Below the pieces are notes generated by a model. That model did not search any database. It saw nothing but the letters and a program-made list of their open reading frames with translations, and was not told the origin of the DNA. The translations under genes were made by a program, and so were the position numbers. A stretch of 64,000 bases of DNA from a virus (taxonomy: Duplodnaviria; Heunggongvirae; Uroviricota; Caudoviricetes), in the IMG/VR virus record IMGVR_UViG_3300037280_000066, positions 118,061 to 182,060 of that record; one strand, given 5' to 3'. This document shows, in pieces, positions 16,536 through 45,763 of the stretch. Positions within the stretch are counted from its first letter, which is position 1, and every line of letters starts with the position of its first letter.

Positions 16536-16608
16536 TCTAAAGGGTGGGATTTGAACCCACAACCTCTTGCATCCAAAGCAAGCCATCCCCCAATTGAATT
16601 ACCTCTAG
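16536..16608 (-). tRNA. tRNA with anticodon TGG (second Pro-type copy, A37)
   Basis: T-arm GTGGG/ATTTGAA/CCCAC, anticodon arm CTTGC-ATCCAAA-GCAAG, weak D-stem. Confidence 0.55.
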
Positions 16609-16619
16609 TTTTATTGCTA

Positions 16620-16692
16620 TACTCCTACTAGGAATCGAACCTAGATTAACGAATTAGAAGTCCGTTGTACTGTTCCGTTGTACGATAAGAGC
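16620..16692 (-). tRNA. tRNA-Arg (anticodon TCT)
   Basis: T-arm CTAGG/AATCGAA/CCTAG, anticodon loop CTTCTAA, D-stem GTAC/GTAC. Confidence 0.7.
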
Positions 16693-16714
16693 AAATTTTG
16701 TCTTATATCTTCAA

Positions 16715-16786
16715 TGGACTTAGCAAGAATCGAACTTGCATCTTTGCATTCGTAGTGCGAAATTCTGTCCATTGAAATATAAGTCC
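16715..16786 (-). tRNA. tRNA-Arg (anticodon ACG)
   Basis: T-arm GCAAG/AATCGAA/CTTGC, perfect acceptor GGACTTA/TAAGTCC, loop CTACGAA, one C:A mismatch in anticodon stem. Confidence 0.6.
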
Positions 16787-16867
16787 TAGTGAAGAATTTT
16801 TTTGTACTGATACATCTTCATCATCAGCAGAGAACTTAATCTCAAGACAGAGAATTTAATCTCTAAA

Positions 16868-16940
16868 CTGGCAAGGCAGGACTCGAACCTGCAACCTTCT
16901 AGTTAACAGCTAGTTGCTCTACCTGTTGAGCTACAAACCA
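16868..16940 (-). tRNA. tRNA-Asn (anticodon GTT), acceptor stem with 2 U:U mismatches
   Basis: T-arm GCAGG/ACTCGAA/CCTGC, anticodon arm TCTAG-TTAACAG-CTAGT, D-arm GCTC..GAGC. Confidence 0.55.
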
Positions 16941-16957
16941 ATATATTTATTACCAAG

Positions 16958-17031
16958 TGAACCTAGACAGACTTGAACTGTCAACCTACGAGTTAAAAGC
17001 TCGTTGCTCTAGCCAGTTGAGCTATAAGTTC
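16958..17031 (-). tRNA. tRNA-Lys (anticodon TTT)
   Basis: T-arm GACAG/ACTTGAA/CTGTC, anticodon arm ACGAG-TTAAAAG-CTCGT, D-arm GCTC..GAGC. Confidence 0.75.
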
Positions 17032-17115
17032 ATATTTTAAATTAGGCTGAACTCCATGGTTTTTAATTTAACAGTTTACCATCTTTTTGACCACTGACCT
17101 AATTCTTTTACTACA

Positions 17116-17188
17116 TCCTCCATATTGGAATCGAACCAATGACCACTCGCATATAAGGCGAGAACTCTAACCACTGAGTTAATGGAGA
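17116..17188 (-). tRNA. tRNA-Ile (anticodon TAT, AUA-reading)
   Basis: T-arm ATTGG/AATCGAA/CCAAT, anticodon arm CTCGC-ATATAAG-GCGAG, D-arm ACTC..GAGT. Confidence 0.65.
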
Positions 17189-17195
17189 CTAGGAA

Positions 17196-17279
17196 CGGTA
17201 GATATGTGACTCGAACACATGAGGCTTTTACACCCACTTGTTTAGCAAACAAGCTCCTTACCAACTAGAATAATCTACC
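17196..17279 (-). tRNA. tRNA-Ser (anticodon GCT), long variable arm
   Basis: T-arm ATGTG/ACTCGAA/CACAT, perfect acceptor GGTAGAT/ATCTACC, anticodon arm CTTGT-TTGCTAA-ACAAG, 3-bp D-stem, 84 nt. Confidence 0.7.
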
Positions 17280-17283
17280 ATGA

Positions 17284-17371
17284 CGGAAGATATAGGATTC
17301 GAACCCATGATACCCTTTCAGATATGCTAGTTTTCAAGACTAGTGCAATAATCCATCTCTGCCAATCTTCC
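17284..17371 (-). tRNA. tRNA-Ser (anticodon TGA), long variable arm
   Basis: T-arm with G-U, perfect acceptor GGAAGAT/ATCTTCC, anticodon arm CTAGT-CTTGAAA-ACTAG, variable-arm stem ATATC/GGTAT, 88 nt. Confidence 0.7.
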
Positions 17372-17507
17372 ATTTTTATTACTGTTTTGTTCTTTGGTGT
17401 GCTATAATGCCAAAGTCATTATGATACGTCTATTGTTCACTGTACATTATGATTTTACGTTTACCAAACTTCACTCCTTAGATGATGGACACCTTCAATC
17501 CTACATT

Positions 17508-17555
17508 CCAAAAAACAAAAACTAAGTAGACCTACATTGAAGTAAGTCTACTTAA
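17508..17555 (-). terminator. Rho-independent terminator after HU gene (hairpin also followed by a T-run on the plus strand)
   Basis: 9-bp stem TAAGTAGAC/GTCTACTTA at 17524-17555; minus transcript continues into a U-run (plus-strand A-run 17509-17523). Confidence 0.6.
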
Positions 17556-17579
17556 TCTTTTTTATGTACTGGTTTGCGA

Positions 17580-17861
17580 TTAAGCGTTTACTTCTTCTTT
17601 TACACTCTTTGAGAATGTGAATACTGGTTTAACTCCTGCTGGTACTGCTACTGGCTCGCCAGTTCTTGGATTTCTAGCTGTTCTAGCATTTGTTGCTCTT
17701 ACTTTGAATGTTCCAAAGCCTGAAAGTGTTACCTTTTCTCCATTAGCAAGTGCTGTTTGGATGCTTGAGATTACTGCTTCTAATGCAATTTTGGAATCTT
17801 TCTTTGTAAATCCTGTAAGGCTTGCGATTGATGCTACTAAATTTTCTTTGTTTGTTTTCAT
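17580..17861 (-). CDS. HU/IHF-family histone-like DNA-binding protein
   Basis: 93 aa; GFGTFKVRATNARTARNPRTGEPV arm motif; GGGAGA RBS. Confidence 0.85.
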   Translation of the reverse strand: MKTNKENLVASIASLTGFTKKDSKIALEAVISSIQTALANGEKVTLSGFGTFKVRATNARTARNPRTGEPVAVPAGVKPVFTFSKSVKEEVNA

Positions 17862-18082
17862 TTTTAATTTCTCCCTTTTATTCGTTTATTTTTTATTTAT
17901 AAAGTGTTCAACCACCTTATATACTTATCTTACCACACTCTTTTTGATTTGTCAAGCTTTTTCAATACTTTTTTATTTTGTATTTTTATTTCGTTTGTTT
18001 CCTTCAAATTATAGCTACCACGCTTAATGGTAGCCATGTTTAGAAAGGAGGTTTATATGAAACAAAAATTTTATTGACTCTT

Positions 18083-18262
18083 TTATTCTGATACTTCATT
18101 CTTTAAACTGATAGTAATTTTTACATTCTCACCATCAAATTTCTCTAACAATTCTTTCAAAGGTTTTACTCCAATTTCATCAAATTCCATTGTCATACCA
18201 TCAACATTCAGAATCCCTGATAAAACTTTGCTGTGGCTCTCTGTTATAGGTGCTTTAGCCAT
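18083..18262 (-). CDS. small hypothetical protein (59 aa)
   Basis: Not in ORF track; ATG 18260-18262 behind AAAGGAGG; MAKAPITESHSKVL... Confidence 0.35.
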   Translation of the reverse strand: MAKAPITESHSKVLSGILNVDGMTMEFDEIGVKPLKELLEKFDGENVKITISLKNEVSE

Positions 18263-18277
18263 TATGTATTCCTCCTT

Positions 18278-18447
18278 TTATTCTTTAATTACCTTTACCT
18301 TGCTTTTACTGAACGCATTCATCAAAGCAACATATTGTTCTGGTTTACTTGCCCATAGGTAATCTCCTATAGTGTTTTTCCATTCATCCTGCTTAACTTC
18401 TTCCACTTTAGGTGCTACTTTCTTGTTGTTACTTACAAGCTGTGCCA
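18278..18447 (-). CDS. small hypothetical protein (56 aa)
   Basis: Track ORF trimmed to ATG 18447 (MAQLVSNNKK) behind AAAGGAG; the longer track version would overlap tRNA-Gln. Confidence 0.45.
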
Positions 18448-18489
18448 TAATCAATAATCTCCTTTTATCCATTTTATTTTTATTGCAAA

Positions 18490-18563
18490 CTACCAAGGTA
18501 GGATTCGAACCCACAAGCATCTAGAGTCAAAGTCTAGCGTTCCACCATTTGAACTACTTGGTA
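18490..18563 (-). tRNA. tRNA-Gln (anticodon TTG)
   Basis: T-arm GTAGG/ATTCGAA/CCCAC (G-U), perfect acceptor, anticodon arm CTAGA-GTCAAAG-TCTAG, D-arm GTTC..GAAC. Confidence 0.7.
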
Positions 18564-18757
18564 TTATACTCTTAGGAAGTGCCTAATTAAGCCGAGGTAA
18601 GCAAAGGCACTATTTTACATTCAACGGAGAATCACTCTTTAACCTATCTTGGAAACTTGTATGACGAGTTCTTTTTGTTTGTGAATCCTCTTGTCATACT
18701 CTAAAACCAACCTGAGATTTTAATTTTAACGCTGAATAACCTAAAAAACTTTCTGAG

Positions 18758-18831
18758 TGGACAGGATTGGAATTGAACCAACGAACACTTAGGTTTTCAG
18801 CCTAATGCTCTACCGACTGAGCTACCTGTCC
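18758..18831 (-). tRNA. tRNA-Phe (anticodon GAA)
   Basis: T-arm ATTGG/AATTGAA/CCAAC, perfect acceptor GGACAGG/CCTGTCC, anticodon arm TTAGG-TTTTCAG-CCTAA, D-arm GCTC..GAGC. Confidence 0.7.
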
Positions 18832-18844
18832 ATATTTATTACTA

Positions 18845-18916
18845 TAGCGAATACCAGAATCGAACTGGTGTTTCAGGGATGAAAACCCTGCTTCCTGACC
18901 ACTAAAAGAATTCGCC
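18845..18916 (-). tRNA. tRNA-Glu (anticodon TTC)
   Basis: T-arm ACCAG/AATCGAA/CTGGT, anticodon arm CAGGG-ATGAAAA-CCCTG, D-stem with G-U pairs. Confidence 0.65.
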
Positions 18917-18934
18917 ATTTATTACTTTGTTACA

Positions 18935-19007
<73 letters not shown>

Positions 19008-19014
19008 ATTGGTA

Positions 19015-19087
19015 CGACTCTGGTGGGAAGTTGAACCCACATCGCTTGCGTGACAGGCAAGAATAATAGCCTTTATACCACAGAGCC
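19015..19087 (-). tRNA. tRNA-Asp (anticodon GTC), 8-nt T-loop
   Basis: T-stem GTGGG/CCCAC around loop AAGTTGAA, anticodon arm CTTGC-GTGACAG-GCAAG, weak D-stem. Confidence 0.55.
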
Positions 19088-19101
19088 ATATTGTATTACT
19101 A

Positions 19102-19175
19102 AGCGAATAGTGGGATTCGAACCCACAACACCCTGCTTGGAAGGCAGGAACTCTAGCCAATTGAGTTATATTCGC
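19102..19175 (-). tRNA. tRNA-Gly (anticodon TCC)
   Basis: T-arm GTGGG/ATTCGAA/CCCAC, perfect acceptor GCGAATA/TATTCGC, anticodon arm CCTGC-TTGGAAG-GCAGG, D-arm ACTC..GAGT. Confidence 0.75.
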
Positions 19176-19298
19176 ATTTTGTATGGTGGAATTAATCTCA
19201 ATGATACCACTCCACCACACTGCAAGCCCACAAGTCATGCTTTATCAGCTTTTTCTGTTGTCTGTCAACGGTAAGCCCATACGTCTTACATTATATTG

Positions 19299-19814
19299 TC
19301 AAGGTTTTTTTCCATTTATCAAATCATATATCGTTAACCCATTCGTCCACTCAAAGTGTGATGAATCTACAAAAGATTTAAAATGTCCACCCCATGTCAA
19401 TCCTATTAATTTTTCTCCTATTGCTCCTACACTCTGGATAAGTCTTTCATCATACTTATCATAACCCTTCATGTTGATACAGAAATCAAATGCTAAACCC
19501 CAATTATGTTTACTATACCCTGCTCTAGTCATTGTTACTACTTGAGATTGGTCAATGATGTTTCCATCTTCATCCCTACCTCTTTGATATAGCTCTTTCT
19601 GTTCTTCACTACTTCTGTAACCTGACACAATTTGTAAAGTAATACCTTGTCTTCTGCATTCATTTACTAGCTGAATACACATCTTCCTTACTTTAGGATT
19701 CAATGAATTGATGATATCCCAATCCTGCTTTGTTAAAAAGTCAGGAATCTGCATCTGTACAATAGCAGGTGGTGGTGTTGCATAACCAAATATCTTTTTT
19801 ATGTATCTTAGCAT
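19299..19814 (-). CDS. peptidase M15 (VanY/L-Ala-D-Glu peptidase-like) cell-wall hydrolase
   Basis: 171 aa; SGYRS...ELY and HNWGLAFDF...SHFEW zinc-peptidase motifs; AGAGGTGA RBS. Confidence 0.7.
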   Translation of the reverse strand: MLRYIKKIFGYATPPPAIVQMQIPDFLTKQDWDIINSLNPKVRKMCIQLVNECRRQGITLQIVSGYRSSEEQKELYQRGRDEDGNIIDQSQVVTMTRAGYSKHNWGLAFDFCINMKGYDKYDERLIQSVGAIGEKLIGLTWGGHFKSFVDSSHFEWTNGLTIYDLINGKKP

Positions 19815-19844
19815 ATGTAGTCACCTCTGTTGCATAAACTTATG

Positions 19845-20027
19845 TTAGAATTTGTACCCACAATGGTTTACAAGATAATCAATTGCTGACAACTTCTTTA
19901 AACCAGTTGCTCCTGTCTCTGCTTTACCTTTAACCTTTGGTTTCTTGATAAACTTGCCAAGTGCTTCAAATCCATCATTATGTATTGTTGCTAAAGCATC
20001 TTTTTCAGTCCATTTTCTCATATACAA
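19845..20027 (-). CDS. hypothetical protein (60 aa)
   Basis: Track ORF; AAGGAGG RBS. Confidence 0.45.
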   Translation of the reverse strand: MYMRKWTEKDALATIHNDGFEALGKFIKKPKVKGKAETGATGLKKLSAIDYLVNHCGYKF

Positions 20028-20064
20028 TTCCTCCTTTTATTCATGTTACATTTTTTGTTGCTAG

Positions 20065-20138
20065 TACGAGTAAGAGGACTTGAACCTCCAAATTCTTGCT
20101 TCTAAGGCAAGTTCCTATGCCAATTCGGATATACTCGC
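20065..20138 (-). tRNA. class-I tRNA with Leu anticodon TAG (atypical)
   Basis: T-arm AGAGG/ACTTGAA/CCTCC, acceptor with one G-U, anticodon arm CTTGC-TTCTAAG-GCAAG, Leu-like 3-bp D-stem with GAATTGGCATA loop, but only a 5-nt variable region; A73. Confidence 0.55.
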
Positions 20139-20144
20139 ATATGA

Positions 20145-20218
20145 TGGGTCAAGAGGGATTCGAACCCTCACTGAACGGATTTTAAGTCCGTTTCCTCTGC
20201 CAGTTGGGATACTGACCC
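20145..20218 (-). tRNA. class-I tRNA with Leu anticodon TAA (atypical)
   Basis: T-arm GAGGG/ATTCGAA/CCCTC, acceptor GGGTCAG/TTGACCC, anticodon arm ACGGA-TTTTAAG-TCCGT, 5-nt variable region, poor D-stem; A73. Confidence 0.5.
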
Positions 20219-20237
20219 AATTCCTTACTACTCTCTT

Positions 20238-20266
20238 ATCTTACCACATACTCTTTAATTTGTCAA
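20238..20266 (-). promoter_or_regulatory. sigma-A-type promoter (TTGACA-17-TGgTAAGAT) driving the tRNA array
   Basis: Minus-strand read: TTGACAAATTAAAGAGTATGTGGTAAGAT. Confidence 0.6.
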
Positions 20267-20634
20267 CACATTTCTTTCATTTCTTTTTCTAATTGTTTTC
20301 GCATTTTCTTTTTTCCACATCTTCTATTCTTTTTACTAGCTTTACCTGTCTTTCCATGGTTAAAGTCTGAATAAAAATACTGATACTTCATTATAAATGC
20401 TCTTTGCTTTCGTTTTGCCATTGCAATCACCTCTTATTAGAAGACAATCACCTCTTTCTATGGTTGTTATTAAAAAGCATCTGTCTCTCCAGAATGTCAC
20501 CTTTATAAAACTTAGTCAAGTAATGGACAGTAAAGGTCTTCCCCTCGTCAACGCTTGATTCGCCCCTATCTCTTAATAGCACCTACATCGAGATAAAATT
20601 CTTCCTACCATTTCTGGCGAGTGCTTAAAATGAG

Positions 20635-20706
20635 TGGAGCTATAGGGACTCGAACCCTAAACCCTCTGCTTGCAAAGCAGATGCTCTCCCTTTGAGCTAT
20701 AGCCCC
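20635..20706 (-). tRNA. tRNA-Ala (anticodon TGC)
   Basis: T-arm TAGGG/ACTCGAA/CCCTA, anticodon arm TCTGC-TTGCAAA-GCAGA, D-arm GCTC..GAGC. Confidence 0.7.
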
Positions 20707-20906
20707 ATTTGTCGAAATTGTAAGGACTCGAACCTCCACCAATAAAATTACTTAGTATACTTTCATTTTATCAATCCGTAGCTTTCTCATTGAATTACTC
20801 ATATCTTGTTTATCTAGAAAACCTGATATTTTCACGCTACACCAATTCCATATGTAAAACTTTTTTGTTAGGCTTTAGTTCACTAAGAATTCCTAAAGCT
20901 CATTCA

Positions 20907-20978
20907 AGGTCAATATCTGAATCGAACAGATGATAACTTGGGTTGCAACCAAGAGCCTTACCACTTGGCTAATTGACC
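20907..20978 (-). tRNA. tRNA-Cys (anticodon GCA)
   Basis: T-arm ATCTG/AATCGAA/CAGAT, perfect acceptor GGTCAAT/ATTGACC, anticodon arm CTTGG-GTTGCAA-CCAAG. Confidence 0.75.
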
Positions 20979-21016
20979 ATTTGACTATTGTAATAGTCAG
21001 AACCTAACTCTCTAAA

Positions 21017-21100
21017 TGGGCAAGGTGTGATTCGAACACACAATGTTTCTTATGTCACAGTTTTACAGACTGCTTGCTTCACCAATTTGCATACCTACCC
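21017..21100 (-). tRNA. tRNA-Tyr (anticodon GTA), long variable region
   Basis: T-arm GTGTG/ATTCGAA/CACAC, acceptor with two G-U, anticodon loop CTGTAAA, 3-bp D-stem TGC/GCA, 84 nt; variable-arm stem poor. Confidence 0.55.
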
Positions 21101-22771: not shown

Positions 22772-23491
22772 CTAACAAGAATAATTTTTTATGTACCTTT
22801 TAAAAAACACACTAGAATCAAACTTATATTCATTAATACATATTTTGTAAATATTTATAAAGTGTTCTTCTAAACTTTCTGTATCTCCTACTGTATAAAT
22901 TACCTTTCTCACTTTAGGTAAATTTAACTTATATTTGTTAGGATGTTTATACACAACACCTTTGCTAAATGGATTATCACGCAATATCTTTTTTATCTGA
23001 TTTCTAGATATTATATCAATAAATTTACTTTCTTCTAATTTATTGATAACTCTCTCAATTTGCATCTCTTGCATTCCACTCAACTTCTCTAAAGACTTAT
23101 ATCTACAATAAAAGATACCCTCTTTATTAGCATATATTTTACTCAAAAACAATAAACAAAATGCTATCTTCCTCTCACCTTTTGTTACTAATTTATTTAT
23201 TGCTCTCATTTCTTCTAAGTATATCTTAACATTAACATCATCAATAAATTTGTAACTTCTATTGTATATAATATGTACAACCTCTATAACTTCCTCAATT
23301 ACTTCATTATATGGTGAGTCAATTTTTTGTGTTGTTAACCAACTCAATATATTATGAATACAACCTTCTTCTGTAGTATTAATATATTTATAATACTTGG
23401 ATAAAAGGGAGATGTTATACCCAAAAGTTAAATTTGGGTATAATCCATCTTTCAACATCTTTACTGCCCTATCCTTCTCACTAAACATCAA
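22772..23491 (-). CDS. hypothetical protein
   Basis: Track ORF 239 aa; overlaps the upstream gene by 11 nt. Confidence 0.5.
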   Translation of the reverse strand: MMFSEKDRAVKMLKDGLYPNLTFGYNISLLSKYYKYINTTEEGCIHNILSWLTTQKIDSPYNEVIEEVIEVVHIIYNRSYKFIDDVNVKIYLEEMRAINKLVTKGERKIAFCLLFLSKIYANKEGIFYCRYKSLEKLSGMQEMQIERVINKLEESKFIDIISRNQIKKILRDNPFSKGVVYKHPNKYKLNLPKVRKVIYTVGDTESLEEHFINIYKICINEYKFDSSVFFKRYIKNYSC

Positions 23492-25985
23492 ACAATTCCT
23501 CCATTCGATAATAATGACCTAAATACTCAGTATCATTCCTATCAAATGTCTCAGCAGGAAACATTATATTCATCTCCCTATTCTTCTCCAAATTCAAGAA
23601 TAAACCTTCCTCAGTTATTACCCAACAAAAGTTCTTAGCCTTACTTGGATACTTAATATAAGATAAATGTACTGCATAATTAGCTAATTCACTTGGGTTT
23701 GGAACAATAGCTTGTACAATAGCCTTATATTTCTCATATACAATATCCCAATTCACATCAGTACTTTGTATCTCTGCTTTACTATAACCCTCAAAAAATG
23801 ACTTGTATTGACTATAATTCTCAGCCATCCTGCTCTGCTTACCTAACTCTACCATCTCTTTATTGAATGCTATAAAAACTTTTTCAACTTCCTTATAAAG
23901 CCCATCATCCCAATCTTGACTTTTATCAATCATATATTCACTAGTGTCAGGACTCTTTCTTTTAAATCTTATACCCTTCTGCCATTTTTCAACATCCCAA
24001 CATAAATGATTAAGATTACAATTTGCCTTGGAAAACATCTTTAACTTGGAATAATAATATCCTGCATACTTCATGAAGTAAGGTAATGGTCTAGCATACT
24101 TAGCAATATGATAAGGTACTAACCATCTCATTCCTGTCTTAGCATAATCTATCTCCTTACCATTTATAACAGAAAGCAAGCAAACATAATCATTAAATCT
24201 TTCCTTAGTCTTTTCATCCTTGGTCTGCTTATTAAGGTAACAAGTGGCAACATTACTTATCTCACCAATCCTAGAATCAAGAGACATAAGCATATAATTG
24301 ATAACACCTTCTTTGTTATATTGAACATCTAACGCTGTTATCTTATCATCTACATCTATTACTATTGGTAGGTCACGCTGAACACCTTTACGCATTATCT
24401 CATTATTAGTAACAAATACAAGGTCACCATCTGTGTCTGCTCCATTTAATCTCTTAGTTGTTATGTCATAACTATTCAACATACAGACATTCTCTAAGTG
24501 ACTCAAGTAATCCCTTATCTGTGGACTAGATGTTTTAGCTAAAATAGTATGCTCAGATGGACATATGTGTGGATTCCTATCAATAAGATATTCTCCATTC
24601 TGCAATCCATAAGCATAAAACTCACCTTCTCCTAAACACCCTACTACTGGAAGTCCCCCTGCTGATTCCATCATCATAATAACATCAGGTATCAATATCT
24701 TGAAACAACCCTTTACCCACAACTTACCCATTTTGAATTCATCCATGTACTTCTTCAATAATGAGAATAGATACTCTTTAACCTTAAAATCTTGCAACAT
24801 TCCACTATGTAAAGTAATGGCTTTCATATATTTATTACTTGGATTGTTACCACCATTCTCCATGCCAAGAAATTTGTAAGTGTAAATAGGGTCACCTGTT
24901 ATTATATTCTCAGCCCACCTTTTACTATATTCTCCAAGTTCTATCATATCCTCTTTTTCAATCTTTAATGTTTGAAGATATTGATAATTTACTCTTGTGT
25001 ATAGAGGTTCTTCCTCAGTTAAGAAATTCCATTTAGCTATTCCTAAACAATGATTATGCTTATAAAATTTTGCTAAGTAGTTTTCCCAATCACTATAAGT
25101 ACCTGTCTTCTTGAAATACTTAACACCTTTATACATTGATTTAGTCCAAATGCATTCTACTTCATCAACACTATGTTCAACTCCCCATATATCCTTAATA
25201 TGAGTAATACCTTTGTTTCTGTAGAATCTTCTAAAATCAACCTCTATAGTTAATCCCTTTACAAAAGGCATTCTACACATAAATACACTTGGGTGTGTTG
25301 TTATACCTATTGCATCTGCCCACTTTTTTGACAATTCTGGTATATGCATTCCACTACCATCAGCAGGTGTTACTGGCACATCTTGATATCCCTCAAATAC
25401 ATTCTTAGTCTTACCATACTTAATCTCACCTGTTACTTTATCAACCCATGATGTATCTTCTTCTCTTACAGACTTAATGTGTTGGTTAGGTATCACTCTT
25501 TCAAAATCATCCACCACTATTATATAAGGAAGCTTTCCCTCAATGAAGAAACATGAGCTAAACATTAACCCTCTATATGCTGTATATTTGCTAATTACAG
25601 TTTTGTCAATCTCCAAGTCCATAGTGATTCTTTCATTTAATTTACCTTCAATCTCTTCATCAATAAATCCAATAATGGCATTTCTACACATTGATGCTGA
25701 CCTTTCAGTAAAAATAAACTTCTTACCATTTATACTAAACCCATCAGTCAATAACTTTCTCATGATATCAGTTTCATTTTGAAATCCCTTACAATCTATA
25801 AATACTATATAAGGATTAAATTCATTATCATAATCAGTAATTAACCTTATCTGCCTGAACATCATATTATCTTGTTGTTTTATGTAAAACATCTTCTCTT
25901 GTTCAAGGTTTAACTTCATTTTGTATTCTTGATTTAATACATCCCTTAACTTGAATTTTCTAATTATATATAACGTAGGAGACAT
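23481..25985 (-). CDS. large protein with NGADTDGD motif: candidate YonO-like single-subunit RNA polymerase (alternatively a primase/polymerase)
   Basis: 834 aa ORF; NGADTDGDLVFV resembles the NADFDGD Mg-binding motif of the multisubunit-RNAP beta-prime double-psi beta-barrel and of SPbeta YonO (about 839 aa); no polymerase-B or SF helicase motifs seen. Confidence 0.4.
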   Translation of the reverse strand: MSPTLYIIRKFKLRDVLNQEYKMKLNLEQEKMFYIKQQDNMMFRQIRLITDYDNEFNPYIVFIDCKGFQNETDIMRKLLTDGFSINGKKFIFTERSASMCRNAIIGFIDEEIEGKLNERITMDLEIDKTVISKYTAYRGLMFSSCFFIEGKLPYIIVVDDFERVIPNQHIKSVREEDTSWVDKVTGEIKYGKTKNVFEGYQDVPVTPADGSGMHIPELSKKWADAIGITTHPSVFMCRMPFVKGLTIEVDFRRFYRNKGITHIKDIWGVEHSVDEVECIWTKSMYKGVKYFKKTGTYSDWENYLAKFYKHNHCLGIAKWNFLTEEEPLYTRVNYQYLQTLKIEKEDMIELGEYSKRWAENIITGDPIYTYKFLGMENGGNNPSNKYMKAITLHSGMLQDFKVKEYLFSLLKKYMDEFKMGKLWVKGCFKILIPDVIMMMESAGGLPVVGCLGEGEFYAYGLQNGEYLIDRNPHICPSEHTILAKTSSPQIRDYLSHLENVCMLNSYDITTKRLNGADTDGDLVFVTNNEIMRKGVQRDLPIVIDVDDKITALDVQYNKEGVINYMLMSLDSRIGEISNVATCYLNKQTKDEKTKERFNDYVCLLSVINGKEIDYAKTGMRWLVPYHIAKYARPLPYFMKYAGYYYSKLKMFSKANCNLNHLCWDVEKWQKGIRFKRKSPDTSEYMIDKSQDWDDGLYKEVEKVFIAFNKEMVELGKQSRMAENYSQYKSFFEGYSKAEIQSTDVNWDIVYEKYKAIVQAIVPNPSELANYAVHLSYIKYPSKAKNFCWVITEEGLFLNLEKNREMNIMFPAETFDRNDTEYLGHYYRMEELFDV

Positions 25986-28842: not shown

Positions 28843-29892
28843 TTAACGGTATATTGCGAACTGCTCAATTTGGTACATGTACTTATCCCTATCTTTAGTG
28901 TTCAGATTATCTCTGTATTGCTCCAATATCTGCATGTAATATTCCATTATGTAAAGATAGTTTTTGTTATGTAGTAAAGATTGATTGCTACTATATGCTA
29001 TCTTCTCAAATCCACCAATACTGTTAATATAATCTCTATACTTATACTGTTCCTCATTTAAATGCAGATATATATTATGATACACCCACTCTATACGTTC
29101 TAATATAGGTATACGGTATCTATTATTCCCACCTCTAATATATTTGTCACCATGAAATACTGCATCTGTATGTATTATTTTAATCAGATTGTATTTGTGT
29201 TCACCTAACTCTTTTATTGTTAAGTTTATAGTTTCTTTATTGATGCCAAGACTTTCTCCTATTTGTCTTTGCGTTGGATAAGCATAATGTTCCCTATAGT
29301 AATGATAGATAGGTTCTCCTGTCTCTGCATCAGGTGTTGTCCATACTCCAAAAAAAGAATAATTAACCAACATCATTGAATAAACTGCCCACTGTGTACT
29401 GCTTAACATTGGTAAGATATTCTTTAAAAATTCTACAGGCATTGCTATGTAACCATTACCCTCTTTTACTGTTGTGTTGAGATAATTACAGTCTGAATTA
29501 TACAATATACATACATTCAATGGTGTGTTGTTCTTAATGTCATTTACCGTACCATCTTCTGATACAATGCATATTACACCCTTGTTATGTAACAATAATA
29601 GTATATCTTTTACTTTTGTTGCCCTGATTCCAGTGAATTCAGTTATCATATTGATTGTTGTGGTTGCATAATAAGCATTATTGCTACTGCTCATAAGCCA
29701 GAATAACACATACCACCCATCTACAGTATATAAATCTCTAATAAAATTCTTATTTATACTGTCATATTTGATTTTCAAGAACTTTTTGTAATCTATCCCC
29801 TTATTATCCATCTCTTTATCCCTGTAAATGTAATTAGGTTCTTTCTTACCATATAAATCCATGATATCCTCCACACTTCCGATTTTGTTCAC
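28843..29892 (-). CDS. HTH-containing protein, paralog of 59836-60864 (candidate replication initiator or regulator)
   Basis: 349 aa; GTG start behind AGGAGGG; aligns over its full length (about one-third identity by eye) with the 342-aa protein encoded in opposite orientation at 59836; HTH-like YAYPTQRQIGESLGINKETINLTIKEL. Confidence 0.7.
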   Translation of the reverse strand: MNKIGSVEDIMDLYGKKEPNYIYRDKEMDNKGIDYKKFLKIKYDSINKNFIRDLYTVDGWYVLFWLMSSSNNAYYATTTINMITEFTGIRATKVKDILLLLHNKGVICIVSEDGTVNDIKNNTPLNVCILYNSDCNYLNTTVKEGNGYIAMPVEFLKNILPMLSSTQWAVYSMMLVNYSFFGVWTTPDAETGEPIYHYYREHYAYPTQRQIGESLGINKETINLTIKELGEHKYNLIKIIHTDAVFHGDKYIRGGNNRYRIPILERIEWVYHNIYLHLNEEQYKYRDYINSIGGFEKIAYSSNQSLLHNKNYLYIMEYYMQILEQYRDNLNTKDRDKYMYQIEQFAIYR

Positions 29893-32039: not shown

Positions 32040-32335
32040 AATATAATAAAAGGGTAGGTGAAGTGGGTATGGTATGGGTGTTAGCGTTAGTAGGGGCTGT
32101 TAGTGTTGTGGGTGCATTGAGTTACTATGGGTTGCTAGATGTTTGTGACTTGATTGAAGCATTGTGTGATGTGCTGAGTGAAATTGATTTTGATTAATGG
32201 TTGGAGGATGGAGTTAGGTAGGTGAAGTTTTTATGTGGTATGTTTTATTGTTTGTGCTTTTATTGTTTGATGAATAGGTAAGTGGTAAGTAGGGGCATGA
32301 TTTTTCAGGGCTAGAAATGGAAGTACCATGGTGGG
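32040..32335 (+). other. C-depleted (G+T+A) strand-skewed segment
   Basis: About 300 nt with only a few C on the plus strand; mirror counterpart (G-depleted) at 36520-36840. Confidence 0.6.
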
Positions 32336-32340
32336 GCGTT

Positions 32341-32572
32341 GGGAAATTATGTCACCTAATTATGTAAACCAGGGGCTACCATATTATGTAAACAATTTTC
32401 TTCCATATTATGTAAACCAAATATTATGTAAACAATTTCCATAAAATTATGTCAACTTTATTATGTAAACTTTATCCATTTATTATGTAACCCATATTAT
32501 GTAAACTAAAAAATAGACAAAAAAAAGAGGTATTATGTCACCCCTTTTAATTTTATTATGTCAAGTATTATG
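32341..32572 (+). repeat. iteron cluster 1: about 11 direct copies of ATTATGTAAAC (variants GTCAAC/GTCACC)
   Basis: Copies at about 32345, 32361, 32385, 32409, 32425, 32447, 32462, 32483, 32497, 32533 and 32556 with irregular 4-25 nt spacers. Confidence 0.8.
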
Positions 32573-32789
32573 GTAAATTATTTATGAAATCAAATATTTC
32601 TGTATAATGTTTTAATCTGTTAATATCATCCAAAAATAGATGTTTTTTCCTTCTCTTTTCAGCTTCCTTTAATTTGTTTTCTATTTCCTCTATCTGTATT
32701 AAAAGGTAATTTTTAACAGTGTTAATAGTTGCCATATATTGTAAACCTCCATTGTAAATTATTGTTAATAGTAGAATGTCAATAGCTAA

Positions 32790-33683
32790 TTAATGAATTT
32801 TACATAAATGGATTTTACCTTTATTAGTGTAGCAATTACGGCACTTCTTACACTTGCCAGCACAATTGACTATATCGTCAACACTTAAATTATGTTTACT
32901 AATAAATGTTAATACATCATCATAATTAGAATACGTTAAATAGATGTTAACATTTCCCTTTTTTAATAGGTCTTTTGGTATCTCATAACTACATAATGCA
33001 TCGAATGAAAGTTGTAAAGTAAAGTTTTTTGGTAACTTCTTTATGTCTTCAAACAATTCAAATTGTTTTGTATAGCTGTAAAATGTAACATTCTTATTAT
33101 CTTTAATTACTTTTAACCATTGGTTTAAATACTCTTTATTAAAGAAGTCCCCTTCTGTATGAATTCGTATTAAGTCGATATCATCGTGTAATATTTGCGT
33201 GTTTATTCTGGTAAAAAATTTGTTGCTATCTGTCAAGTATGAAAGTAAAACATTAAACCGACTTGACATATTATTTTTATAAAATTTGGACTTTTCACAG
33301 TAACAATATTTAGAGCATACCGAACAACGTTCTTTATGGCAGATATTGTTATTTTTGGTAAAATCTGATAATAGTTGAATCTCACTATTAACGTTGTCAT
33401 TAGTTAACATAAATTCATTGAATGCAGTAATACTGTTAATATTTGGAATAAAGAAGTAATAAGATTCCATTTTTTTATTCATTCCATTTTTTAGGATATC
33501 AAGTTTAGGATTATATTTCATTAACATAATTTCTTTACTTAATTTGTCTACTAATACACTTTGTTTTTGTTCTTCTGTTTTGGCAATGTATCCAGTTGTT
33601 ACCTTCTTTGTTACTACCTTTGTTGTTACTGTTTTTGTTGTTACTACCTTTGTTGTTTTAGTTGACATTGTTTTAGTTGACAT
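32790..33683 (-). CDS. Cys-rich protein with N-terminal T/K/V repeats (putative Fe-S or Zn protein)
   Basis: 297 aa; GAAGGAG RBS; MSTKT x2 then TKVVTTKTVTTKVVTKKVTT; clusters CHKERCSVCSKYCYC and CAGKCKKCRNC. Confidence 0.6.
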   Translation of the reverse strand: MSTKTMSTKTTKVVTTKTVTTKVVTKKVTTGYIAKTEEQKQSVLVDKLSKEIMLMKYNPKLDILKNGMNKKMESYYFFIPNINSITAFNEFMLTNDNVNSEIQLLSDFTKNNNICHKERCSVCSKYCYCEKSKFYKNNMSSRFNVLLSYLTDSNKFFTRINTQILHDDIDLIRIHTEGDFFNKEYLNQWLKVIKDNKNVTFYSYTKQFELFEDIKKLPKNFTLQLSFDALCSYEIPKDLLKKGNVNIYLTYSNYDDVLTFISKHNLSVDDIVNCAGKCKKCRNCYTNKGKIHLCKIH

Positions 33684-33773
33684 AATATCTCCTTCTGGGT
33701 AAACCTGTTACCCTTGCCACGTTGGGCATTATTTTTTATTTTATGTTAATGTTATATTGTTACTTCTTTATGT

Positions 33774-34307
33774 TTACCAACAACACCTTTGCAAGTTGGC
33801 ACGTTTGGCACGTTCACGAATTGCGTTATAAGAATAATGATTTTCCCATACACTGGAATTTAATCCATAATCAATAATTACATAATTTCCCTTTTTATTA
33901 AGTCCCCAACTTCTAGCACATTTTATGTCACCCTCTAATAAATCATAGTTGGTTTTCATATCCTGTAAAAAATCGGTAAAATATCTTTCAATTTCCTTTT
34001 TTGTGAGATTTGTTTCATTATCAACATTGAATGCAACATAATTTTTTATTGCGTTGATACCTTTGACCTTTTCGCAATGTTCACATATAACATAAGTGTA
34101 ACATGATGATATTTCAATTACTGGGTTCAAATATTTGCTTTCACCTGATAACGTGTATTCGGTTTGGTTTTGGTCATAACCTTTATTGTTAAACGCTACT
34201 TTACAAACTAAACCAGATTTTAAAAGATATACTTTTCTAGATGTTCCCTTTCCTATCAATAACCCTTCTTTGATTTCATCAACGATATTATCCAAATTAT
34301 AACCCAT
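33774..34307 (-). CDS. small protein-kinase-like protein
   Basis: Start at the second ATG (MGYNLDN) behind AAAGGAG; glycine-rich loop IGKGTSRKVY plus VCKV lysine; YVIIDYG DFG-like motif. Confidence 0.5.
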   Translation of the reverse strand: MGYNLDNIVDEIKEGLLIGKGTSRKVYLLKSGLVCKVAFNNKGYDQNQTEYTLSGESKYLNPVIEISSCYTYVICEHCEKVKGINAIKNYVAFNVDNETNLTKKEIERYFTDFLQDMKTNYDLLEGDIKCARSWGLNKKGNYVIIDYGLNSSVWENHYSYNAIRERAKRANLQRCCW

Positions 34308-34362
34308 TGTTTTATTCTCCTTTGTATGTTGCACCTAGCAACGTTTATTATTGTTTAACTTG

Positions 34363-34425
34363 TTACCCTCTATATATCGACAAACTTTTTAAATACCTTA
34401 ATACTTTTTTTAAAAATTATTCACT
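34363..34425 (-). promoter_or_regulatory. upstream element copy 1 (ATATATCGACAAACTT...AATACTTTTTT...) for the kinase-like gene
   Basis: About 60-nt motif repeated at 34935-35000 upstream of the methyltransferase gene; no TTGACA/TATAAT on the minus strand. Confidence 0.45.
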
Positions 34426-34429
34426 ATTT

Positions 34430-34912
34430 TTATAAAATTAAATAACCCCCATTTATTAAGCCCTTTTGTATTTTTGCAGTTGGGAAAAATTGTAAATATT
34501 CCTTTGTTAATTCGTTTCTTTGATAGCAATCTTTTTTACTTTGTTTTCCTTTGTTGGTTTTGTCCCCTTCATAGACTTGTACAATATAGGGAACGTTAAA
34601 ACTTGTTATCAGGTGGGCAATGTCTTTTATTGTGTCGGTGGAATCAATAACATTTAAAACATTATTACAAATAATCAAAGAAGGTTCACAATGTAAAGCC
34701 CTTTGATTGTCTTCATTGGTTCGATTAAATTTGTCATAAATGAATAAATCAATGTTGTATTCCTGTTTTAAAAAGTCTTTTAAATTGTCGAATTTTCCCC
34801 CTCCAATGTCGAGAACCTTTGAACCCTGAAAAGCATAAAAAGGAATTTTTTTCGTTGATGCAGGTAACTTGTTTTTGTTTATTGATGTTGTGGCACTTGT
34901 TAATATTTGCAT
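34430..34912 (-). CDS. SAM-dependent methyltransferase (small)
   Basis: 160 aa; motif I VLDIGGGKF; GGAGGG RBS. Confidence 0.65.
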   Translation of the reverse strand: MQILTSATTSINKNKLPASTKKIPFYAFQGSKVLDIGGGKFDNLKDFLKQEYNIDLFIYDKFNRTNEDNQRALHCEPSLIICNNVLNVIDSTDTIKDIAHLITSFNVPYIVQVYEGDKTNKGKQSKKDCYQRNELTKEYLQFFPTAKIQKGLINGGYLIL

Positions 34913-34934
34913 TGTTTAACCCTCCATATAATAA

Positions 34935-35000
34935 TTTTTTTGTTCTCTTAATATATCGGCAAACTTAATAAATACATTAATACTTTTTAAAAAATATTCA
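34935..35000 (-). promoter_or_regulatory. upstream element copy 2 (ATATATCGGCAAACTT...AATACTTTTTAAAAAA)
   Basis: Shares about 45 of 60 nt with 34363-34425. Confidence 0.45.
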
Positions 35001-35077
35001 TGTTTCTAAAATATTTTTTAGTATTCCATATACTTATTATTAACTAATATAATATAATTATGTTAACCAATAATTCC

Positions 35078-35232
35078 CTGTCATGACATGTTTTAACATG
35101 TTATTTTTTGTCATGACATATTCACCCATATAAAATTTTAAAATGTTTTCAATTGCGTATTTCTGTAAAGCCTTGATACTGTCAAAAAAATGATACCCCT
35201 ATAATATATCATTATCATGACATCATGACAAG
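35078..35232. promoter_or_regulatory. operator-like palindromes TGTCATGACA (x2) and TCATGACATCATGACA
   Basis: Perfect 10-bp palindromes at 35080-35089 and 35110-35119; tandem half-sites at 35213-35229; intergenic between the leftward cassette and the rightward RHH gene. Confidence 0.55.
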
Positions 35233-35369
35233 CTTTATTTTTTCAACTTTTTAAATTTTATACATGATTTTAATATTTATTTTTTCATTTATTAGTAGAG
35301 AAATAATATACATTTTTTCCCTATCATGATATAATGATTTATAAAATTTTATAGTGAGGTGTTTTTTAT

Positions 35370-35555
35370 ATGGAAACAATGGAAATGTCAAAAGGTCAAG
35401 ATGAAAAAATGAAAAAATATCAATTTTACTTATTGCCAACAACTGTAAAAACCTTGAAAAATTTACTAGTATTCAAAGAAGAGGACACAAAGGAAACAAT
35501 GACAGATTTTGTAAGAATTGCCATTGAAAGGGAAATACAAAACAGAAACAATTGA
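35370..35555 (+). CDS. ribbon-helix-helix (CopG/Arc-like) DNA-binding protein
   Basis: 61 aa; KKYQFYLLPTTVKTLKNL...DFVRIAIEREI has an RHH-like pattern; GTGAGGTG RBS; extended -10 TGATATAAT at 35326. Confidence 0.5.
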   Translation: METMEMSKGQDEKMKKYQFYLLPTTVKTLKNLLVFKEEDTKETMTDFVRIAIEREIQNRNN

Positions 35556-35922
35556 TAATATATTTTTTACTTTTATTCCCTTATTTAAATAACCTTCAAA
35601 AGGTTATTTTTTATTTATGCTCATTTTATATTATTGTAAACTTTTTATGCTCTTTAAATATTAAATCATAATAGCATAAAGTCATTTAATATTTAAATCA
35701 TATTATATCAAATACCCTAAAATATTTAGGTAAAAAGGCAATATTGCATCAAATCAATTTTTATTGATATAGTAGTATAATAACACCCCTTTAATATTAA
35801 CGTGCCTTAAATAGCTTCTAGTAAGCGAATAATGGCAGGTAAACGAATTATGTTAACTAGTTGATTCCCTTATTATTCCATGCTATAATTATCATGATAG
35901 ATTTTATTAGGAGGTGTTAAAA

Positions 35923-36096
35923 AATGGAAAAGGAAAAAATTGACAATGAGTATAGAAGTTACGAACAAATGTTTAACTTCCTTATGTATACTGATTTTGT
36001 CAACTTGAAAGATGATAAAAAAATGAAAGTCATTAAAGAGATTCAAAATATTAAAATGGAAAAATTGCAATTGATACCACATAATAAGAATACATA
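35923..36096 (+). CDS. small hypothetical protein (57 aa)
   Basis: Not in track; TTAGGAGGTG RBS; TTGATT-17-TATAAT promoter at 35863-35891; supersedes the antisense track ORF 35873-36130. Confidence 0.45.
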
Positions 36097-36182
36097 ATAA
36101 AGGGGAAAAATACAAATGAGCATAAAACAAACAAACGAAAAAAACATGGTTATAATTTACAAGTTTATCAGGTTTTTAATAA

Positions 36183-36207
36183 AAAGGGTAACAAACCCTT
36201 TTTTTAT
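36183..36207 (+). terminator. Rho-independent terminator
   Basis: AAGGGTAACAAACCCTT hairpin followed by TTTTTTAT. Confidence 0.5.
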
Positions 36208-36214
36208 ATCGTAA

Positions 36215-36445
36215 AGTTATTATGTAAACTGATAAGTGTAGAGGGATTATGTAAACTCATTATGTTAAGTTATTATGTAAAGTGATTATGTCAACTCATT
36301 ATGGAAATTTTTTATGTCAACCCCTGGCTAGGTGGCTCATAGTGCGAATTCTATGTCTTATTTACAGCAACTACAAAAACAAGCATGAGGTAAAATGGAT
36401 TCCCTACGTTTTGAAGAGGGATTATGTAAATTAAAATCCTATGTT
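36215..36445 (+). repeat. iteron cluster 2: about 7 copies of ATTATGTAAAC-type repeats plus 2 copies of TATGTYWTATTTACAGCAA
   Basis: Copies at about 36219, 36248, 36263, 36275, 36288, 36316 and 36422; secondary repeat at 36352 and 36437. Confidence 0.75.
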
Positions 36446-36519
36446 ATATTTACAGCAAGCGTTTTGTAAACCACACAAATAAATAATTTACATAACTCGC
36501 AGGGGTAACAGAATTTACC

Positions 36520-36840
36520 AAGGGAGCGTGTTTCAAAATAAAATAACCAAAACCAAATTAAACAAACACCTTATTCCCCTCACCTCTAATTACCTTTACA
36601 CACCAACAAATAACTCCACTCTTCTCTTAATCCACACCCACAATTTTCCTCTCTATAATTTCCACTCCCTCCCTCTTCCCTCACACTTCAACATGAACAC
36701 ATATAAACTCATTCTACACAACACTTTCCTTATCTTAATCACCTCCAAAAATAACAAATACTCACCTATGCTTCGCCACATTTTTATCCTCTCTCAGACC
36801 TCTGTATATCCATATAATAAGCCAAACTAAAAACTACATT
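36520..36840 (+). other. G-depleted (C+A+T) strand-skewed segment
   Basis: About 320 nt nearly devoid of G on the plus strand; inverse composition to 32040-32335. Confidence 0.6.
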
Positions 36841-36934: not shown

Positions 36935-36964
36935 TTGACAATGTTATTATAGGCATGATACAAT
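36935..36964 (+). promoter_or_regulatory. early promoter (TTGACA-N18-TGATACAAT)
   Basis: GTATTGACAATGTTATTATAGGCATGATACAAT. Confidence 0.55.
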
Positions 36965-44560: not shown

Positions 44561-44611
44561 AAGGATAACAACTAACAACAAATTTTAAATTAAAAAAGGA
44601 GAATGATTATT

Positions 44612-45763
44612 ATGTTTAAGAAGACACAGCTTTCAATGAATTATTTAGGTTTGGTTAAGAAGGTAGTATCAGGAGCAGTAAGGTTTGATTTGGAAATACA
44701 AAGAAGAGCAGTATGGACAGAGAAACAGAAGCAAGACCTGATTGACTCATTAATTTTTGATTTCCCTGTTCCTCCATTGTACTTTGTAGATTTGAAAGAT
44801 GATTTCAAATGGGCATTAGATGGACAGCAAAGGTCAAGAGCTATGACAGAATTCTTCCAAGGCAAGTTTGTTTTGAGTGATGAACTTGACAACTATGTTG
44901 ATGATGATGGAGCAGAATACATGGTGGCAGGATTGAGCTATGCAGAACTTCCACAAACTGTACAAACTAAGTTGAATAGTACAAACGTTAACACATACAC
45001 ATTCTCTGATATATCAGAAGACGAAATAACCATTATGTTCCAAAGATTGAATGCAGGAACAGCCTTTAAGAAGATTGAGCTTATCAGAATTGACATGCCT
45101 ACAGCGTTTACAGCATTCATTAATGAAGTATCAAGAGATTCCTTCTTTGCTGATAAGGTGGCTATAAGTGACAAAGCAAGGGTACATTTTTCAGACCAAG
45201 AACTTATCCTTCAAACACTTATTATGTTCTCTAATGCTGATTCAGGCTTTACAGGTAAAGAGATTCAAGATTTTGTATCATATTACACATTGGAAGATGA
45301 TGTAAAGGACAGATTCAGAGAAGTTTTAACTTACCTTAACAAAGCATTTGTATTGAGTGAGAAGCTACTTAAAAAGACTGCTGTGCCTGTAATATTCAAG
45401 GTAGCAGAAATAGCAATAATTGAAAAAGTACAGCCAGAAGAGTTCTATACATGGACAGTTGACTTCTTCAAAGCTCAAAAAACTGGTGGCGAATATGGAA
45501 GAACAGTAAGTGCAGGAAGTGCAAGAAAAGAAAATGTAAAGAGAAGACTTGAAGTTTTACGCAATGCATTTACAAAGGAAGTTCCTGAACTCAAAAAGAT
45601 TCAAGTAATTAGAGAAAAGGCAGAAGCAAAAGCAAGAGCAGAAGCCATCAAGAACCCTCCTGTAGTAGCACCTGTAGTATCTGACATAATAACAGACCTT
45701 GCAGACGATAAGGACGTAATATTGCCAGTAGTAGCAGGACAAACTCAACAGGCACAGGTGTAA
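44612..45763 (+). CDS. DUF262/ParB-like nuclease-domain protein
   Basis: Start ATG 44612 (MFKKTQ), 10 nt after AAGGAG; LEIQRRAVWTEKQKQDLIDSLIFDFPVPPLYF...LDGQQRSRAM matches the DUF262 (GmrSD N-terminal/ParB-like) signature. Confidence 0.6.
   Translation: MFKKTQLSMNYLGLVKKVVSGAVRFDLEIQRRAVWTEKQKQDLIDSLIFDFPVPPLYFVDLKDDFKWALDGQQRSRAMTEFFQGKFVLSDELDNYVDDDGAEYMVAGLSYAELPQTVQTKLNSTNVNTYTFSDISEDEITIMFQRLNAGTAFKKIELIRIDMPTAFTAFINEVSRDSFFADKVAISDKARVHFSDQELILQTLIMFSNADSGFTGKEIQDFVSYYTLEDDVKDRFREVLTYLNKAFVLSEKLLKKTAVPVIFKVAEIAIIEKVQPEEFYTWTVDFFKAQKTGGEYGRTVSAGSARKENVKRRLEVLRNAFTKEVPELKKIQVIREKAEAKARAEAIKNPPVVAPVVSDIITDLADDKDVILPVVAGQTQQAQV

Follow-up and report, generated by a model that had tools for sequence, protein, structure and literature searches.

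What is the 4.8-kb block found at positions 32040 to 36840 of the DNA analysed here, a stretch of 64,000 nucleotides (the window; positions 118,061 to 182,060 of the IMG/VR record IMGVR_UViG_3300037280_000066) from a gut-type phage of ~182 kb and 32% GC, whose contig comes from the Logan assembly of SRR11847931? An earlier note made from the letters alone described it as a skewed arm and a cluster of repeats followed, after several genes, by a second cluster and an arm of inverse composition. This layout is correct and represents a conserved architecture, not chance. What was overlooked there is that the repeat reads as the XerD arm of dif. We propose, with a probability of about 0.4, that the block is a conserved boundary-plus-cargo module, in which XerD-coated arrays and polar arms would surround exchangeable early accessory genes.

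When ATTATGTAAAC was searched with at most one mismatch, 25 matches were obtained in the window against 5.1 expected, and the exact copies are confined to 32359-32506 and 36219-36256, all of them on the + strand. With array sites counted by anchoring on TTATG, the two clusters previously described proved to be real and to hold 12 and 8 sites, respectively, on the same strand. The left array (32346-32577, +) is made of 12 head-to-tail copies of ATTATGTAAAC and its variants GTCACC, GTCAAC and GTAACC, spaced by 13-24 nt, and the right array (36219-36431, +) of seven repeats with a regular 13-nt period (36219-36321) plus another one at 36421, in the same orientation as the left. The dif site of B. 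subtilis is ACTTCCTAGAA-TATATA-TTATGTAAACT, and the array repeat, ATTATGTAAAC(T), matches the XerD-binding right arm of dif sites at 11 of 11 positions. Because the dif sites of many bacteria end in this same XerD-binding arm, finishing in ...ATTATGTAAACT or C (PMC2731167), the "iteron" of this block is by sequence the XerD arm of dif.

XerD, a recombinase at dif, has more recently been recognised as a factor that unloads SMC at a few chromosomal sites: in B. subtilis and S. aureus this takes place at XerC-independent XerD-binding sites (XDS; PMC9226527 and PMC11894783, citing Karaboja 2021), in which the XerD arm is joined by a 5-6-bp degenerate centre to five bases, the inner ones, of a partner arm (PMC9226527). 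When compared with these sites, the arrays do offer, by sequence, bona fide XerD-binding arms away from dif, and a dif-like layout was not found in them, their sites being head-to-tail direct repeats. In the whole block, no complete dif-like site (an arm and an inverted arm 5-9 bp apart, allowing 4 mismatches in total) was detected except for a weak inverted-arm site with a 9-bp spacer at 33676. Since there is no XerC arm and no central region in the arrays, and all sites have the same orientation, Xer recombination as now understood cannot act on them, and they are predicted not to be recombination sites.

To look for the protein that could bind these arrays, we scanned IMG/VR for two adjacent copies of the motif, which gave 32 loci. 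Neither in the window nor in the motif-bearing loci L001-L032 did phmmer detect a tyrosine recombinase, and with blastp no small protein was seen to be shared by the window and these loci; a phage-encoded recombinase or a common DNA-binding protein as array binder was discarded, as none was found in the window or in L001-L032. The same motif is found in host chromosomes. A bacterial scan with one genome per species yielded at least 120 motif loci, mostly in Oscillospiraceae, Lachnospiraceae, Acutalibacteraceae and other Clostridia, and in 45 of the 61 loci having TTATGTAAAC-N3-4-TTATGTAAAC the array is located ~140 nt upstream of spoIIM-xerD, an operon that codes for SpoIIM and for a XerD reaching 353 bits with NCBIfam TIGR02225 (cut-off 329.6). 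Host and phage arrays are alike in that a degenerate first site, TTTTGT(A/C)A, is followed by canonical sites at 13-14-nt spacing. Furthermore, several of the IMG/VR motif loci are 14-15-kb contigs with repeats at their extreme ends. One of them, L009, encodes collar proteins, an encapsidation ATPase and a polymerase of the protein-primed type and is a phi29-like podovirus; its inverted terminal repeats (1-90 and 14830-14917) hold 4-5 XerD-arm copies 25-85 nt from each end. In L032 the terminal sequences with XerD-arm copies are at 1-60 and 14720-14781. As the window lacks a recombinase and the same arrays front spoIIM-xerD and sit at podophage termini, host XerD is the likeliest binder, and most likely it would bind the phage arrays independently of XerC.

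Some other features of these host and phage loci deserve mention. In many Clostridia (loci L045-L159; e.g. L152, from about -130 to +130 around the array) the DNA upstream of spoIIM-xerD contains a conserved non-coding element of ~250 nt, with a TTGACG-17-TAATAT promoter-like site, ATCAAGG, four direct XerD-arm repeats and a stem-loop in this order; the base of the stem-loop is conserved (AAGATATGG...CCATATCTT), whereas its top varies. No Rfam family was found for this element, which could be a XerD autoregulatory operator or a small RNA. Several copies of TTTACGTCAAGATA(C/T), resembling GTTGACGTAAA and CAAGATAT upstream of host xerD, stand beside XerD-arm repeats at 4690-4940 of contig L164, one of the relatives described below; this element was not found in the window. 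Beyond L009 and L032, podophage-sized contigs including L002, L022 and L028 carry 2-5 XerD-arm repeats within their terminal sequences, and a terminal sequence GTGGTAG... just outboard of the repeats is common to L002, L009 and L028. In L009 and L032 the arrays adjoin both the termini and early promoters.

The second component of the block is the pair of arms. The left arm (32040-32335, +) is a G/T-rich, nearly C-free spacer (A69 C14 G102 T111; C is 14 of 296 nt, 4.7%) whose G-rich strand reads rightward into the block, and the right arm (36520-36840, -) is C/A-rich, nearly G-free on the plus strand (A113 C103 G12 T93; G is 12 of 321 nt, 3.7%), with its G-rich strand reading leftward into the block. 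In 300-nt windows the GC skew reaches +0.79 in the left arm and -0.89 in the right one, which are the extremes of the 64 kb (0.1 percentile, -0.81; 99.9 percentile, +0.75). The suspicion that the arms are outliers in composition was therefore borne out, no other region of the window being as strongly skewed. They have composition alone in common: the local alignment score between them is 23, against 24.9 +/- 3.7 in shuffles, so that they are not inverted repeats, and no k-mer shared among arms was found. They are not degenerate iterons either, except in L165, to whose left arm the enrichment in TTATG is confined. The proposal that they encode C-poor structured RNAs was not supported, given that they have no Rfam match and folding z-scores of +0.56 and -1.09 versus shuffles.

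The same set of parts was found in other uncultivated phages. A search for homologs of the GP88-family protein encoded in the block led to contigs L163, L164 and L165, and a search with a 16-mer led to L259. This 16-mer, GGTACTTCCATTTCTA, is the core of the motif GGTACTTCCATTTCTAG (32311-32327, -) located between the left arm and its array; it is identical and at the same relative position in the window, L163 (7271), L165 (5547) and L259 (~3914-3929), and it sits at the GP88 end of the module, in a single copy in the window and with none at the opposite end of the block. As a database query the 16-mer returned mostly chance matches, L259 being the sole new instance. Contig L165 (6 kb, 38% identity) is, as its reverse complement, collinear with the window block. 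It has a G/T arm of 1 kb that is free of C (skew +0.92) and a C/A arm, together with arrays of the XerD arm and the motif GGTACTTCCATTTCTAGCC; L163 has a short C/A arm. L259 encodes a Sir2 62% identical to that of the window, and after it come a repeat free of G, (ATATCAAAT)x9, the 16-mer, ~12 XerD-arm repeats and a small open reading frame (ORF). A different phage with no detectable common proteins, L027, has arrays, small leftward genes, more arrays and a C-free G/T arm, and beyond this arm a 250-bp spacer, a G-free C/A arm and a 12/12 consensus promoter; the spacer holds a palindromic Xer-like site, ATTTACATAA-acaattgt-TTATTTAAAG. We read the succession of arm, 16-mer, array, cargo, array and arm as a kit that recurs in L165, L259, L163 and L027. 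Among INPHARED phages no near-identical or protein-level relatives of the block genes were found, and a related-locus search of IMG/VR with block or flanking proteins gave no relatives.

If the arms recur, are they anything more than ordinary sequence? They could code for small hydrophobic peptides or be neutral spacers generated by slippage, with the repeats bound by some other regulator of phage or host and the match to dif coincidental. The left arm does hold two ORFs preceded by a good TAGGTGAAGT ribosome-binding site, one of 43 amino acids with a hydrophobic product (32069-32197) and the other of 14 (32235-32279), decaying short tandem repeats can be seen to make up the arms in L165, L027 and L259, and the region from Sir2 to the array of L259 appears, read by eye, to be largely occupied by ORFs. 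We nevertheless consider this explanation unlikely, because chance is very unlikely to produce a repeat that agrees with the XerD arm at 11/11 positions and also accompanies xerD in 45 of 61 host loci, and because mirror-image extremes of composition recur in at least three unrelated sequences without similarity. Decay by C-to-T deamination cannot explain the arms, since G is enriched (34% vs ~20%) beyond the depletion of C. The relatives have no homologous arm sequence, just the same composition, and the arms are mostly non-coding, fast-evolving spacers that are conserved in strand composition and polarity alone. The recurrence of those extremes without sequence similarity implies that selection acts on composition.

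The polarity of the arms is also constant, with the G/T arm to the left of the C/A arm in the window and in the contigs described above, which means that the G-rich strands converge. At the DNA level this fits a copy of the skew switch at dif, where G-rich guiding sequences steer FtsK/SpoIIIE to XerD. At the RNA level, the arms could function as polar insulators, with an ideal Rho substrate leaving the block. RNA that is C-rich, free of G and untranslated is the textbook substrate for Rho loading, and for RNAs read outward the median C/G ratio is 4-20 overall and 7-20 in the window arms, where the 95th percentile of the background is 3.2, the outward-reading strands containing short, unconvincing ORFs without convincing start sites. 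These RNAs would thus have the stretch of at least ~80 nt of C-rich, G-poor, untranslated RNA that characterizes Rho terminators.

It is the same polarity that speaks against the block being a replication origin, which the earlier note had considered and which we judge improbable. In such an origin the repeats would be iterons, or auxiliary sites for host XerD comparable to those for NFI and Oct-1 in adenovirus terminal repeats, and the arms would be unwinding or loading zones. The block does contain clustered direct repeats in largely non-coding DNA, and it lies 2-7 kb from the genome-wide skew minimum and divergence of genes (~30 kb), genes being directed leftward up to that point and rightward beyond it, with more G than C on the coding strand (skew ~0.3). 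A strand without G or without C has no G-C self-pairing and would stay unstructured once unwound. Moreover, in the phi29-like podophages the distance from array to terminus is 25-85 nt, which places the arrays at the site of protein-primed origins. However, under the usual leading-strand rule the converging G/T-rich strands resemble a terminus, and arms of 37% GC in a genome of 32% fit poorly with an AT-rich unwinding element. The motif is shared by unrelated phages and host chromosomes, unlike replicon-specific iterons, and no initiator or other Rep-like gene is present in the block, the two DnaD-like genes of the window being elsewhere (28843-29892 and 59836-60864).

The relatives bear as well on the possibility that the block is a mobile cassette driven by Xer or by its repeats, a counterpart of IMEX (mobile elements that integrate with the help of Xer) or of Acinetobacter pdif, in which the arrays would be recombination sites that move the cargo. 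Here the cargo does change: in L165 a Zeta/AAA_33 kinase replaces the non-homologous 186-aa protein of the block and L163 has an additional GP88 paralog, while arms, arrays and 16-mer persist. The composition of the cargo is atypical, with 26% GC vs 32% and a coding-strand skew of ~0 for the GP88 and methyltransferase-like genes and at most 0.25 for the other block genes, vs 0.36 for the backbone (YonO, helicase). In addition, full-length dif-like sites exist in L025 and L027, and the cassettes of L008 and L025 are separated by inverted XerD arms around GC-rich hairpins. On the other hand, the window block has no complete site save the weak one at 33676, half-site arrays in the same orientation are unable to support known Xer strand exchange, and the block occupies the same Sir2-adjacent place in a relative whose Sir2 is 62% identical, so that in the L259 lineage it is old at this locus and not a recent insertion. 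We consequently regard this explanation as doubtful. The idea of a hitch-hiking element or partition region put forward in the earlier note holds in that the arm-array-cargo-array-arm unit recurs with different cargo and backbones and has genes that differ from the backbone in composition, and fails in that there is no recombinase, no inverted ends and no complete Xer sites, besides the constant place next to Sir2 in L259. No parS sites were found in the block. Regarding transposon features, the arms have no common sequence, the arrays are direct and no tyrosine recombinase was detected in the window, no search aimed at transposases having been made.

The cassettes just mentioned are an observation in their own right. 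L008 (40-135, 651-719 and 1608-1678) has small gene cassettes with their own promoters, separated by GC-rich hairpin spacers, and L025 (1-190, 1120-1215, 5170-5320 and 6640-6720) shows the same arrangement; the spacers, of ~35-65 bp, are bracketed by inverted XerD arms, TTATGTAAAC ... GTTTACATAA. They resemble integron attC or the folded attP of CTXphi, and may reflect a Xer-linked shuffling of cassettes in phages.

The cargo itself comprises the three leftward genes reported earlier, all of which are present, plus several small ones. The Cys-rich product (32790-33683, -) belongs to the Pfam family GP88 (E 1.7e-23), with invariant cysteines C115-x4-C120-x2-C123, and its predicted model resembles radical SAM enzymes, so it is probably radical-SAM-like; a role as initiator or DNA binder was discarded. 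At the 5' end of this gene (33596-33667) a 15-nt tandem repeat encodes N-terminal low-complexity repeats of the (T/V)TTK(V) type, and residues 1-31 of the model are disordered (predicted local distance difference test, pLDDT, < 50). The 186-aa protein (33774-34334, -) matches phrog_4301, of unknown function, with E 1e-19 and had no Pfam or PDB match; it is protein-kinase-like by motifs alone (GKGTSRKV, DIK and DYG, read from the translation). The assignment of the third, a 160-aa methyltransferase-like protein (34430-34912, -), comes from a weak match to Methyltransf_23 (E 0.004), and its homologs in the L165 and L163 modules are 50-62% identical. The GP88 gene is always followed by a gene of 55 aa (32568-32735, -), whose counterpart has the same size and position in L163 and L164 and 70 aa in L165; in L259 a comparable small ORF is found beside the array, at the position of the 55-aa gene, as judged by eye and not by alignment. 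The palindrome TGTCATGACA, previously described as an operator, occurs exactly twice (35079 and 35109) and once more with 1 mismatch in the divergent control region (35079-35222, no strand), and these palindromes are probable operators of the adjacent small protein of 61 aa (35370-35555, +), for which the proposed ribbon-helix-helix (RHH) nature is weakly supported by an Arc-like phrog (phrog_2639, E 0.036). Two further small ORFs, of 57 and 32 aa, are located at 35924-36214 (+), with a weak hairpin and T-run after them at ~36183-36206.

The upstream elements at 34372-34415 and 34951-34994, which had been thought not to be of the sigma-A type, are homologous to the cargo promoters of L165 (TTTTAAAATAGTATTGACAAT...TATAAT), where the methyltransferase-like and GP88 genes each lie behind a near-consensus sigma-A promoter. 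A hairpin resembling an intrinsic terminator (32523-32548, -) ends the leftward cargo operon within the left array, past its two innermost, degenerate copies, and to the right of the block a strong backbone promoter lies at 36935-36964, with the right arm upstream of it. Since terminator-like hairpins end the cargo operons and strong promoters stand just outside the C/A arm, arrays and arms fall in gaps between transcription units at either edge of the module.

Individual promoters of this kind would also be expected if the block were a direct terminal repeat or first-step-transfer region bearing pre-early takeover genes, as in T5 or SPO1. Arrays and arms would then mark where it ends, for instance by binding a host protein as a signal for injection stop or end processing. 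Each cargo gene here has its own strong sigma-A promoter (most clearly in L165) and another strong promoter is found directly to the right of the block. Furthermore, three of the four contigs with the exact GP88 protein consist of block sequence only, L034 spanning exactly 32556-36528, and backbone contigs from the same sample are of ~1.3 kb, which would fit a doubled coverage of the block. Nevertheless, the contigs that contain the block alone differ in their left end (32475, 32556 and 32598), without a fixed boundary, and the 182-kb assembly is continuous across both junctions, and we find it quite unlikely that the block is such a repeat.

The explanation that we favour is a two-sided boundary. 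The phage would load host XerD onto both arrays, where it would work by being bound to DNA and would not recombine it, in a manner resembling the XerC-independent XDS of B. subtilis and S. aureus; a non-recombinational role is suggested because there is neither a XerC arm nor a 6-8-bp central region. Together, the XerD-coated arrays and polar arms would insulate the individually promoted early genes (GP88, methyltransferase-like, kinase-like and small regulators) from the flanking operons, shield the cargo from DNA-tracking motors and let the set of cassettes be exchanged between phages. Candidates for the downstream effect are the stopping or unloading of SMC or FtsK-type motors, Rho insulation, an aid to replication and the marking of terminal repeats.

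Several points weigh against this proposal. In known XerD sites, dif and XDS alike, the XerD arm faces at least five inner bases of a partner arm 5-6 bp away; the arrays are direct repeats without a partner arm, and cooperative head-to-tail binding of XerD is unprecedented. We have assumed that the specificity of host XerD is conserved, and a host regulator of spoIIM-xerD other than XerD could be the real binder. The coding of hydrophobic peptides by the two left-arm ORFs may explain part of the arm composition, and little read-through may reach the arms, as terminator-like hairpins close both cargo operons at the arrays or shortly ahead of them. TR-TP1, a cultured relative, lacks arrays as well as arms. 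Finally, once composition is taken into account, the arms show no enrichment in the translocase-guiding motifs known from E. coli, B. subtilis and L. lactis: in the test for FtsK-orienting polar sequences (KOPS) and SpoIIIE recognition sequences (SRS), GGGNAGGG, GAGAAGGG and GAAGAAG were at shuffle level. Because the guiding motifs of FtsK/SpoIIIE are not conserved among Firmicutes (PMC5357621), the absence of the known ones is not decisive.

A bolder version, to which we give little credence, is that with its converging arms and XerD sites the phage builds a miniature chromosome terminus in order to control host motors responsive to such signals, FtsK/SpoIIIE translocases and SMC-family loop extruders, perhaps with Wadjet-type defence complexes among the latter. 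If this were true, the motors might be stopped or unloaded, or phage DNA might be tethered at the septum or pumped into forespores. In either case, the arrays point to a non-recombinational, possibly filament-like use of XerD, with phages exploiting a universally conserved host protein. Head-to-tail XerD filaments, if they exist, would be a general and undescribed mode of XerD action that extends to podophage termini and to host xerD. No description of XerD-arm arrays in phages was found in the searchable literature, and our data suggest that the phage recruits XerD in a way not described before. From a practical point of view, the combination of XerD-arm arrays, mirror-image arms depleted in one base and GGTACTTCCATTTCTA is a signature with which modules of early accessory genes could be found in uncultivated gut phages.

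As for the phage that carries the block, it probably belongs to a lineage of large phages with a YonO-type RNA polymerase that have Clostridia as hosts. The window encodes such a single-subunit polymerase at 23481-25985, with 36-39% identity to those of the Thomasclavelia phages TR-TP1/TP2 and of a human-gut contig and 26% to the YonO of SPbeta; in the relatives this polymerase carries the annotation "RNA-dependent RNA polymerase". A cluster of 26 tRNA genes, in which most amino acids are represented, is located at 15729-21100 on the minus strand, and other products of the window are a helicase, a terminase, a portal protein and two DnaD-like proteins. One of the rightward genes (44603-45763) codes for a GmrSD_N-domain protein, this domain having type IV restriction enzymes as relatives.

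How does the block compare with systems already described? Iteron origins share with it clustered direct repeats of ~11 bp in non-coding DNA and differ in that its motif is not replicon-specific, no initiator is adjacent, the spacing is irregular (13-24 nt) and the polarity is terminus-like. Like the Rho utilization (rut) sites of Rho-dependent terminators, the arms are predicted to yield outward 300 nt of C-rich, almost G-free, untranslated RNA, although they are far longer and more extreme, form a mirror-image pair, and transcription across them is an assumption. In linear protein-primed genomes, sites for host proteins are well known, such as Spo0A boxes and parS-like sites in phi29 or NFI/Oct-1 sites in adenovirus, and in the phi29-like contigs L009 and L032 arrays of putative host-protein sites likewise stand beside termini and early promoters; XerD is unreported in such a role, and the large phage is apparently not protein-primed. 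IMEX (CTXphi, VGJphi, TLCphi and the gonococcal island) and Acinetobacter pdif are mobile DNA that uses host Xer and has Xer-type sites bounding accessory genes, but with complete 28-bp sites that integrate at dif or shuffle between plasmids, whereas the block has half-site arrays of one orientation. With chromosomal dif, on which XerC/XerD and FtsK act, the block shares the XerD arm and the convergence of G-rich strands seen at the dif skew switch; unlike dif, it lies in a phage genome, lacks the XerC arm and central region, has 8-12 head-to-tail copies instead of one inverted pair, and shows no enrichment of known guiding motifs around its arrays. Lastly, the XDS differ from the block in that its sites are direct tandem arrays, carried by phages and flanked by polar arms, and what both would have in common is XerD working as a site-specific DNA-bound protein without XerC or recombination.

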